DNA of 15,754 nucleotides from a virus. The position numbers were made by a program, and so were the translations under genes. The notes under the pieces were generated by a model. The model was not told where the DNA came from and searched no databases. It saw only the letters and a list, made by a program, of their open reading frames with translations. The DNA lies in UHGV virus genome UHGV-0069791. One strand, given 5' to 3'. Below, in pieces: positions 5,223 through 5,825 of the stretch (within the stretch, counting starts at the first letter, position 1; every line of letters starts with the position of its first letter).

Positions 5223-5825
5223 AGATGTCATTACAAAGCCTATCTACGGGTGGGCTTGATAATGAAACCGGAGTTAATTTCTGGTCACTAATTAACGGCA
5301 GTACAGCGAAACAACCCAAGCCAGTAAGTGGGGAAATAACACTGGCAGCCACTGAAAGATGAACCTCCTGCCTTATGGCAAAAAAGATTCTTTGTGGTGG
5401 CGGACTGATGGAAAGACATCGGTTATTGCAGAGACCATTCAATGAGTGGTCTCGACAATGGCTTATACCCTACACGGGATAACTTAACTGATATCCCTTT
5501 TAACGGATAAAGGTATTCAAGCCTGACACATCATGCGCTGTATCGTCGCCGTATTCCCGTATTAACAGAGACCGTAGCCCGACGGGGAACTCCTTCTGCG
5601 AGAGTGTGCGGGAATAATCAAAAACGATGCACACCGGGTTTTTACCGCGTTTATGGTTCGCGGGTTTGTCCCTCATGCTCGCCAGTCCTGTGCGGGGGTG
5701 GAAGAAACAGGATACTCACACAGATTCTTGTGGGCACGATGCTATTCCTTTCTGGATTATCCCGATGCCATTCATGCAAGGCGCTGTATCAGACGTTCGT
5801 CATGGCTGTCAGGCTGACGGGTCCT

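Follow-up and report, generated by a model that had tools for sequence, protein, structure and literature searches.

Positions 5223–5825 of the UHGV virus genome UHGV-0069791, a stretch of 15,754 nt that constitutes the late region of a lambda-like prophage (hereafter the window), extend from the rha stop codon up to the cosQ site and are truly non-coding. This interval is a mosaic of three independently inherited modules, each of them non-coding and conserved, that belong to the lambdoid late operon and meet at recombination joints: module A, which follows rha, element C in the middle, and module D next to cos (Table 1). The analysis favors a reading, to which we assign a probability of roughly 60%, in which the interval is such a three-module non-coding mosaic and element C acts in cis as RNA. 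The mosaic emerged from BLAST comparison with phages and E. coli genomes, which splits the interval into blocks of differing distribution. The initial annotation, made from the letters of the window and its open reading frames (ORFs), had proposed comparing the Rz-to-cos intervals of related prophages.

Element C is a sharply bounded unit. A pattern scan of IMG/VR yielded at least 120 element C loci, which serve as the reference for the element C locus counts below; across them the element starts at TGCGCNGTATCGTCGCC and ends at GGTGGAAGAAACMGGA, with at least seven left-flank and at least ten right-flank classes that are mutually unrelated. Wherever the respective genes were detected, Rz lay upstream on the same strand (108/108 loci), the small terminase gene (TerS) downstream (89/89) and the large terminase gene (TerL) downstream (77/77), with element C located 4–1742 bp from Rz and 114–1599 bp from TerS. 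The terminases that flank it belong to at least three types. In annotated genomes, element C fills the space between neighboring gene ends: it lies between rha and the convergent ylcI in E. coli O45:H2, between iss/bor and ylcI in E. coli B, and directly after Rz in the prophage Sp12 of E. coli O157 Sakai. Lambda has its copy at ~46.87–47.03 kb of the standard lambda numbering, between bor and a ybcV-like gene. The lambda copy and that of the K-12 prophage DLP12 (NC_000913.3, ~579,004–579,179) are separated from cos by intervening genes and by at least ~1.1 kb. In some phages, the distance to cosQ from the end of element C, or of its 5′ domain where this occurs alone, is ~10–45 bp. Copies are also present in Shiga toxin (Stx) phages of the 933W/Min27 type, in E. 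albertii, and in the Salmonella phages S137, SPN3UB and ES18; element C alone was detected in 3820 of 5426 complete E. coli genomes (~70%), at 5938 places. The covariance model R1 assigns 215 bits to the window copy. A lambda-type copy was additionally encountered in ~25 unrelated taxa (including Cohnella, Pedobacter, Flavobacterium, Pseudomonas and Shewanella), on contigs of either ~3.5 kb, the size of the nanopore control amplicon, or 48.4–48.5 kb, the size of whole lambda; most of these hits are most likely lambda (as nanopore control strand or whole genome) or E. coli contamination, not distant homologues.

To describe the structure of element C, an alignment of 77 distinct copies was converted into a consensus fold and refined by hand, giving 38 pairs and 2883 pair cells. 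The fold comprises a 5′ domain, shaped as one long irregular hairpin, followed by the hairpins P3 and P4. Standard pairs occupy 98.1% of the pair cells, against 34–62% when the 3′ partners are slid by 1–3 columns, and the covariation score is 0.180, compared with at most 0.099 for slid partners; none of 500 shuffles reaches the observed values. Eight pairs change on both sides, and at pair 170:192 of P4, 44 sequences have GC, 19 have UA and 9 have GU. P3 occurs in at least five unrelated sequence versions, every one of which forms a hairpin at the same position, and in some Stx phages a 9-nt deletion takes out only the tip of the 5′ domain (P2d), leaving P2c closed. Both-side changes were also found at 13 pairs in a second set of 14 copies, several of which had not entered model building. 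The ES18-type copies, ~77% identical, are the most instructive in this respect: P2a is altered from TATTCCC/GGGAATA to TATCATC/AATGATA, which amounts to three double changes and one mismatch, the P4 stem is rewritten as a whole from TCCGGT/ACCGGA to TCTCGAT/ATCGAGA, and P3 is replaced by a different hairpin. Of the alternative pair states that recur in two or more sequences, 25 are compatible with pairing and 11 are not. Cells with G:U outnumber those with A:C by 418 to 12, and this excess points to the plus strand, the sense strand of the late operon, as the one that folds. Taken as comparative sequence evidence, these patterns suggest that the RNA structure of element C is probably functional.

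The P4 loop (5692–5706) also carries, as do other copies, Chi-like octamers (GATGGTGG or GGTGGTGG, compared with Chi GCTGGTGG) in an orientation that would face RecBCD entering from the right cos end; the lambda copy is devoid of them.

Conservation of this kind could also arise if module A and element C were neutral recombination linkers, kept similar only through repeated crossovers by which lambdoid phages exchange lysis, moron and packaging cassettes, with hairpins devoid of any RNA function. Such linkers would explain why mosaic joints fall exactly at the module edges, why the rha cassette is bracketed by 10-bp repeats, why module A and element C assort independently, why truncated copies of element C exist, and why identities mostly range within 85–100%, as for recently exchanged DNA. 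However, a recombination linker needs identity and not pairing, yet pairing in the helices is retained where both sides have changed, and P3 has been swapped for unrelated hairpins. The G:U excess is strand-specific, and the orientation and position of element C are fixed in 120/120 loci. We regard neutral linkers as an unlikely explanation for the conservation of this region.

We hypothesize that element C would fold within the Q-antiterminated late transcript into a ~91-nt irregular hairpin, the variable hairpin P3 and the purine-loop hairpin P4, and that it would act in cis at the RNA level as a processing or stability signal, which could uncouple the lysis/moron part of the late mRNA from its packaging/head part. 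In this scheme, module A would serve as a linker after moron genes, transcribed in its P22 equivalent (the small RNA P22G, described below), and module D would lead into cosQ. A cis-acting RNA domain is suggested by the location of element C between the lysis and packaging cassettes, always in the sense orientation, by its independence from flanking sequences and by the lack of a promoter or terminator of its own, as well as by conserved unpaired stretches and a duplex that spans about two turns and contains an asymmetric internal loop.

RNase III sites of the T7 R1.1 type and lambda sib are well-known processing and retroregulation hairpins. RNase III typically acts within polycistronic transcripts, at irregular duplexes of ~20 bp that contain an internal loop; in element C, P1, the internal loop, P2a and P2b together provide 17 bp, extended by P2c and P2d, so that the 5′ domain likewise represents an irregular duplex, roughly two helical turns long and interrupted by an asymmetric internal loop. 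Over 98% of these pairs form across the sequences. The genomic setting is also comparable, since element C, in the sense orientation, separates functional cassettes within a transcript that is long, polycistronic and antiterminated. In contrast to these systems, element C displays no sequence similarity to them, possesses two extra hairpins and long conserved unpaired stretches, and its cleavage is a prediction only. By analogy, a processing or stability role resembling that of an RNase III site or the sib retroregulator may be envisaged, but we consider it doubtful in this specific form. Closer to an even chance, though still short of it, is the broader proposal that element C represents a new structured-RNA family of lambda-like late operons whose regulatory role has gone unnoticed in lambda. 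Its candidate roles may include retroregulation or processing that balances lysis–moron against packaging–head expression, or a sensor that gates terminase expression. If functional, element C would be a regulatory part, so far unannotated, in the late operons of lambda and Shiga toxin phages; ~70% of complete E. coli genomes carry it, often more than once. In that case it would also offer a handle on how one 25-kb antiterminated transcript is split into differently expressed parts.

Several observations weigh against a functional cis-acting RNA. The folding energy of element C as a single sequence is no better than that of shuffled sequences (z ~0). Because the copies are related and recombine, the shuffle counts given above overstate significance and are not probabilities, and the real divergence is contributed by two deep clades only, the Escherichia type and the ES18 type, at ~77% identity. 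Mismatches are present in P2a in some ES18-type and E. coli copies. In some truncated copies the 5′ domain is directly followed by cosQ and others are without the P3–P4 linker, and in a bacterial scan using one genome per species the exact core was detected only in Escherichia. The RNase III idea draws on the shape of the hairpin only, and lambda mutants lacking the element C region are viable. None of the Hfq-bound orphan RNAs EcOnc01–64 of O157 Sakai (Tree et al.) maps to element C, and the literature search returned no expression, cleavage or phenotype data for it.

Instead of acting in cis, the interval could encode one or more trans-acting small RNAs (sRNAs), cut from the late transcript or produced from promoters of their own, that regulate host or phage mRNAs. 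Such RNAs are frequent in prophage late regions (PMC4104026), and the homologue of window positions 5285–5438 is covered by P22G, a 204-nt species without known function that lies downstream of ORF201 (rha) and was described in 2026 on the basis of small RNA-seq of Salmonella infected with P22 (PMC13397905). Module A is ~96% identical to the P22G region of P22, and the window block shares with P22G the strand and the position just downstream of rha. However, P22G is defined by read pile-ups of small RNA-seq alone, it spans module A and not element C, and P22-like phages are mostly without element C. The promoter scan identified no sigma-70-like promoter in 4300–6200, and the terminator scan called no plus-strand terminator within the interval (its only plus-strand calls being at 4530 and 5965); a conserved promoter upstream of element C is precluded by its variable flanks. 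The RNA-family scan proposed in the initial annotation was equally negative: Rfam 15 at the gathering threshold returned no match in the whole window, including the AgvB, AsxR, IsrK, C4 and Proteo-phage-1 models, and at an E-value cut-off of 10 nothing in 4400–6600 overlapped element C. Proteo-phage-1 reached 16.8 bits at 5315–5350, against a threshold of 42, and no tRNA or tmRNA was detected. No Hfq peak of Tree et al. falls on element C; the EcOnc coordinates were checked in the Sakai prophages Sp3, Sp4, Sp9, Sp11 and Sp12, where none coincides with the element and none is located in the Rz–terminase gap of Sp3. A comparison of element C with the rest of the window for complementarity yielded four isolated matches of 10–11 nt, taken as chance-level.

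Given that no promoter, terminator or Hfq site was found, a cis-acting domain of the late transcript is likelier than a free sRNA, and we regard a trans-acting product as quite improbable. The initial annotation had offered a decayed moron, a small RNA and an extended cosQ region as possibilities; the second came closest, in view of the P22G homology and the sense-strand structure of element C. As far as we could find, element C is undescribed, and the P22G report covers a part of module A; nothing relevant emerged from literature searches on borD/ybcV sRNAs, lambda late-transcript processing or sequence strings of element C.

The anti-sRNAs AgvB and AsxR and the Pas sRNAs were considered as an identity and rejected. 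Like the RNA proposed here, they are non-coding RNAs of the late regions of E. coli lambdoid prophages, but their location is the pR′ moron site, which is found between Q and the lysis genes (for the Pas sRNAs, near the antiterminator and holin/lysozyme genes and not between Rz and terminase), they are short (50–90 nt), bind Hfq and carry terminators, and the Rfam models of AgvB and AsxR do not match the window. A separate observation concerns EcOnc10, which adjoins element C in Sakai Sp12 (positions 240–288 of locus L307) on the opposite strand and lies at the 3′ end of a ylcI-like gene. This gene and element C converge, the terminator of the gene lying right against the 3′ border of the element. 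EcOnc11 and EcOnc12, the repeats of EcOnc10 in Sp10 and Sp9, probably also lie at the 3′ end of such a gene.

The right edge of the interval is set by cos. A lambda-type cos consists of a cosQ heptamer ~21 bp upstream of a 12-nt cosN, with cosB preceding the small terminase gene, and cosQ and cosN were found in this order ahead of TerS in the window, at lambda spacing and ~186 bp from the TerS start. The cosQ heptamer and a 12-nt cosN with ACG and CGCGG flanks are the points of likeness to lambda. The differences are that the cos sites of the window start only at 5820, at or beyond the edge of the interval, and that the upstream 600 bp, except for element C, are not common to lambda cos-proximal DNA. 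The stretch might nevertheless be a DNA-level packaging sequence, an extended cosQ/termination region recognized by terminase or IHF. Module D fits this idea to some extent: it abuts cosQ, is nearly invariant among 23 distinct sequences, and is shared only where the small terminase is of the same DUF1441 type, namely with mEp460, PhiR40_1, Ayreon and Sakai Sp3, so that a role in cos recognition is possible for this segment. The position of element C or its 5′ domain close to cosQ in some phages points in the same direction. For most of the stretch, however, element C argues otherwise, as it accompanies at least three unrelated terminase types, including those of the 933W type and of ES18, lies far from cos in lambda and DLP12, and exhibits a G:U asymmetry that indicates RNA rather than duplex DNA. 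Packaging DNA is a very improbable account of the interval, and the extended cosQ suggested initially survives as a possibility for module D. ES18 is a headful packager. The Sakai prophage Sp3 shares the layout of the window, except that rha is missing; its cosQ is mutated to GGCTCCT, and one nucleotide is deleted upstream of cosQ.

The absence of genes was assessed by ORF integrity in relatives, synonymous excess and family homology, and none of these points to a protein. The whole interval matches 4081 of 5426 complete E. coli genomes, and the annotation is “none” under all 30 matches listed; likewise, PGAP annotates nothing under 10 of the 12 sampled element C matches. No ORF scanned in the interval matches Pfam. 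It could be argued that the interval holds a decayed moron or unrecognized small genes, namely a 58-aa ORF on the minus strand, an 82-aa ORF and a 101/146-aa ORF. All three are annotated as hypothetical proteins in the relatives PhiR40_1, mEp460 and Ayreon (in Ayreon as a “putative late gene regulator”), the 82-aa ORF (5627–5875) matches PHROG 17397, a family of unknown function and the only family match of the interval, and an open minus-strand frame persists across the left half of element C. The 146-aa (5604–6044) and 82-aa ORFs do run across cos as the initial annotation had described; by reading of the sequence, both cross cosN without a Shine–Dalgarno sequence. Stops and frameshifts nevertheless occur in relatives: the commonest variant class interrupts the 58-aa ORF with an in-frame stop, the 101/146-aa frame is interrupted by stops in mEp460 and E. 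coli Z1323, the 1-nt deletion of Sakai Sp3 is a frameshift that breaks both the 146-aa and the 82-aa frames, and a 28-aa ORF in the left part has lost its ATG or gained a stop. Over the 97 gap-free columns of element C, synonymous changes number 12–17 and non-synonymous changes 27–34 across all six frames, and the open frame, with 12 against 34, is no better than the others. Length variants of element C are not multiples of three, and ECs_0823 is gone from the current O157 Sakai annotation. The initial impression that 5223–5825 lacks a convincing gene was therefore correct, whereas a decayed moron finds no coding remnant in any frame and no protein-family homology; we consider hidden or decayed genes extremely unlikely. 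The module map explains why gene callers place spurious “hypothetical proteins”, even a “late gene regulator”, across cos.

As a whole, the interval is an ordinary moron-junction region. A moron is defined as a gene with its own signals that is inserted between conserved neighbors and absent from close relatives; no such gene is present in 5223–5825, and the actual moron is rha, to the left of it. The rha cassette (4519–5227) is an insertion relative to E. coli Z1323 and Sf6, where 4518 abuts 5228, and it is flanked by the direct repeat TCATTACAAA, the two copies of which are merged into one in relatives without rha. Module A is 93–97% identical in HK97, HK022, mEpX2, Sf6 and P22-like Salmonella phages and matches 2556 of 5426 complete E. 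coli genomes, and the genes upstream of it vary by phage (rha, KilA-N, the 50-aa ORF and others). It assorts independently of element C, which is present in only 8 of 100 module A loci. Two boundary hairpins, hpA and hpB, are located in module A, and the motif CATTACAAA–hairpin–GATAATG recurs behind other moron genes. At least four unrelated genes are inserted exactly at the 5420/5421 junction (Sf6, Stx2_112991 and IMG/VR loci), making it a precise entry hot spot for morons in these phages. The moron boundary sequences of Juhala et al. (2000), as cited in PMC4104026, and the “bsq” features of the Sf6 record are similarly short conserved non-coding joints of mosaic modules, and the window shares with them the end repeats of the rha cassette and a fixed insertion point. 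Element C differs from such joints in its much greater length, its base-pair covariation and its strand asymmetry.

The two hairpins that had drawn attention to the interval are both present. Hairpin 1 is formed exactly as described, by GGGATA (5476–5481), a 10-nt loop and TATCCC (5492–5497), followed by TTTT (5498–5501); hairpin 2 consists of CCGCG (5645–5649), a 9-nt loop and CGCGG (5659–5663), followed by GTTTGT (5664–5669), and corresponds to P3. Each has an energy of −8.3 kcal/mol. In an intrinsic terminator, a G+C-rich stem closes a loop of 3–8 nt and is immediately followed by a U-tract, in which at least five of eight bases are U; the 10-nt loop and four T of hairpin 1, and the 9-nt loop and GTTTGT of hairpin 2, depart from this pattern, and the terminator scan called neither of them. 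By our own estimate, ~1–2 stems of 5–6 bp are expected per 600 bp, and neither hairpin alone exceeds chance; the region is non-random because it is conserved elsewhere, not because of the hairpins alone. Hairpin 1 is conserved without a compensatory change among the conserved copies and could be no more than a weak terminator. An orf80-like gene follows it in P22- and HK97-like phages, with a Shine–Dalgarno sequence and ATG that come ~10 nt after hairpin 1; the window diverges there. The ranking of the two was reversed by the comparison, since hairpin 2, initially called the weaker one, is the better supported through its multiple sequence versions.

Table 1. Sequence features in and around the rha–cos interval (window coordinates).
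Feature	Position	Strand	Remarks
10-bp direct repeat TCATTACAAA	left 4509–4518, right 5228–5237	+	brackets the rha cassette
rha	end 5222		
Module A	5228–5511	+	moron-junction linker; follows different upstream genes in different phages
Boundary hairpin hpA	5236–5261	+	AAGCC.../...GGCTT, then GATAATG; −13.5 kcal/mol
P22G-homologous block	5285–5438	+	nearly identical over 154 nt to P22G positions 50–204 (3′ 155 nt)
Moron insertion hot spot	5420/5421		directly after GGAAAGACATC
Boundary hairpin hpB	5431–5461	+	GAGACCA-N9-TGGTCTC, then GACAATGG; −15.6 kcal/mol; conserved in module A loci
Hairpin 1 with TTTT	5476–5501	+	conserved; in module A
Element C	5534–5713	+	discrete conserved element of ~180 nt; candidate structured RNA of the late transcript
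5′ domain (P1–P2d)	5540–5630	+	one long irregular hairpin, ~91 nt
P1	5540–5546 with 5624–5630	+	
P2a	5552–5558 with 5610–5616	+	
P2b	5560–5562 with 5606–5608	+	
P2c	5573–5577 with 5596–5600	+	
P2d	5584–5587 with 5592–5595	+	
P3	5645–5663	+	hairpin 2 of the initial annotation, CCGCG-N9-CGCGG
P4	5685–5713	+	7-bp stem, conserved purine-rich loop GCGRKGGTGGAAGAAAC
Module D	5714–5819	+	cos-proximal segment; specific to phages with a DUF1441-type small terminase
cosQ heptamer GGGTCCT	5820–5826	+	right edge of the interval; from alignment with the lambda cos region
cosN GGGCGGGAGCGT	5848–5859		lambda-like flanks ACG and CGCGG
TerS, DUF1441-type small terminase	6034–6525		ATG at 6034

The gene order of the window is methylase, holin, YdfR-family gene, lysozyme, Rz, 50-aa ORF, rha, TerS and TerL, and the gene-free gap between rha and TerS, 811 bp, is its largest, four times the next one (~200 bp). 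A strong intrinsic terminator (AGCCTCGCATTCGCGGGGCT, then TTTTAT) is located at 4530–4549, directly after the 50-aa ORF and before the rha leader; as it lies within the late operon, it must be read through by Q-modified polymerase. The rha leader itself (4600–4698) occupies a position similar to that of the published P22F small RNA, which has its 3′ end 6 nt ahead of the rha start in P22. Phage Ayreon (MF807953) contains at ~2908–3057 a 140-bp insert exactly at cosN that repeats a part of TerS (window ~6370–6440), and its “putative late gene regulator” coding sequence runs through this insert, which looks like an assembly artefact across the genome termini. Further downstream in the window, a 739-aa ORF (10097–12316) starts inside the end of a portal-like ORF (8764–10344) and may represent a fused protease/scaffold/capsid gene.

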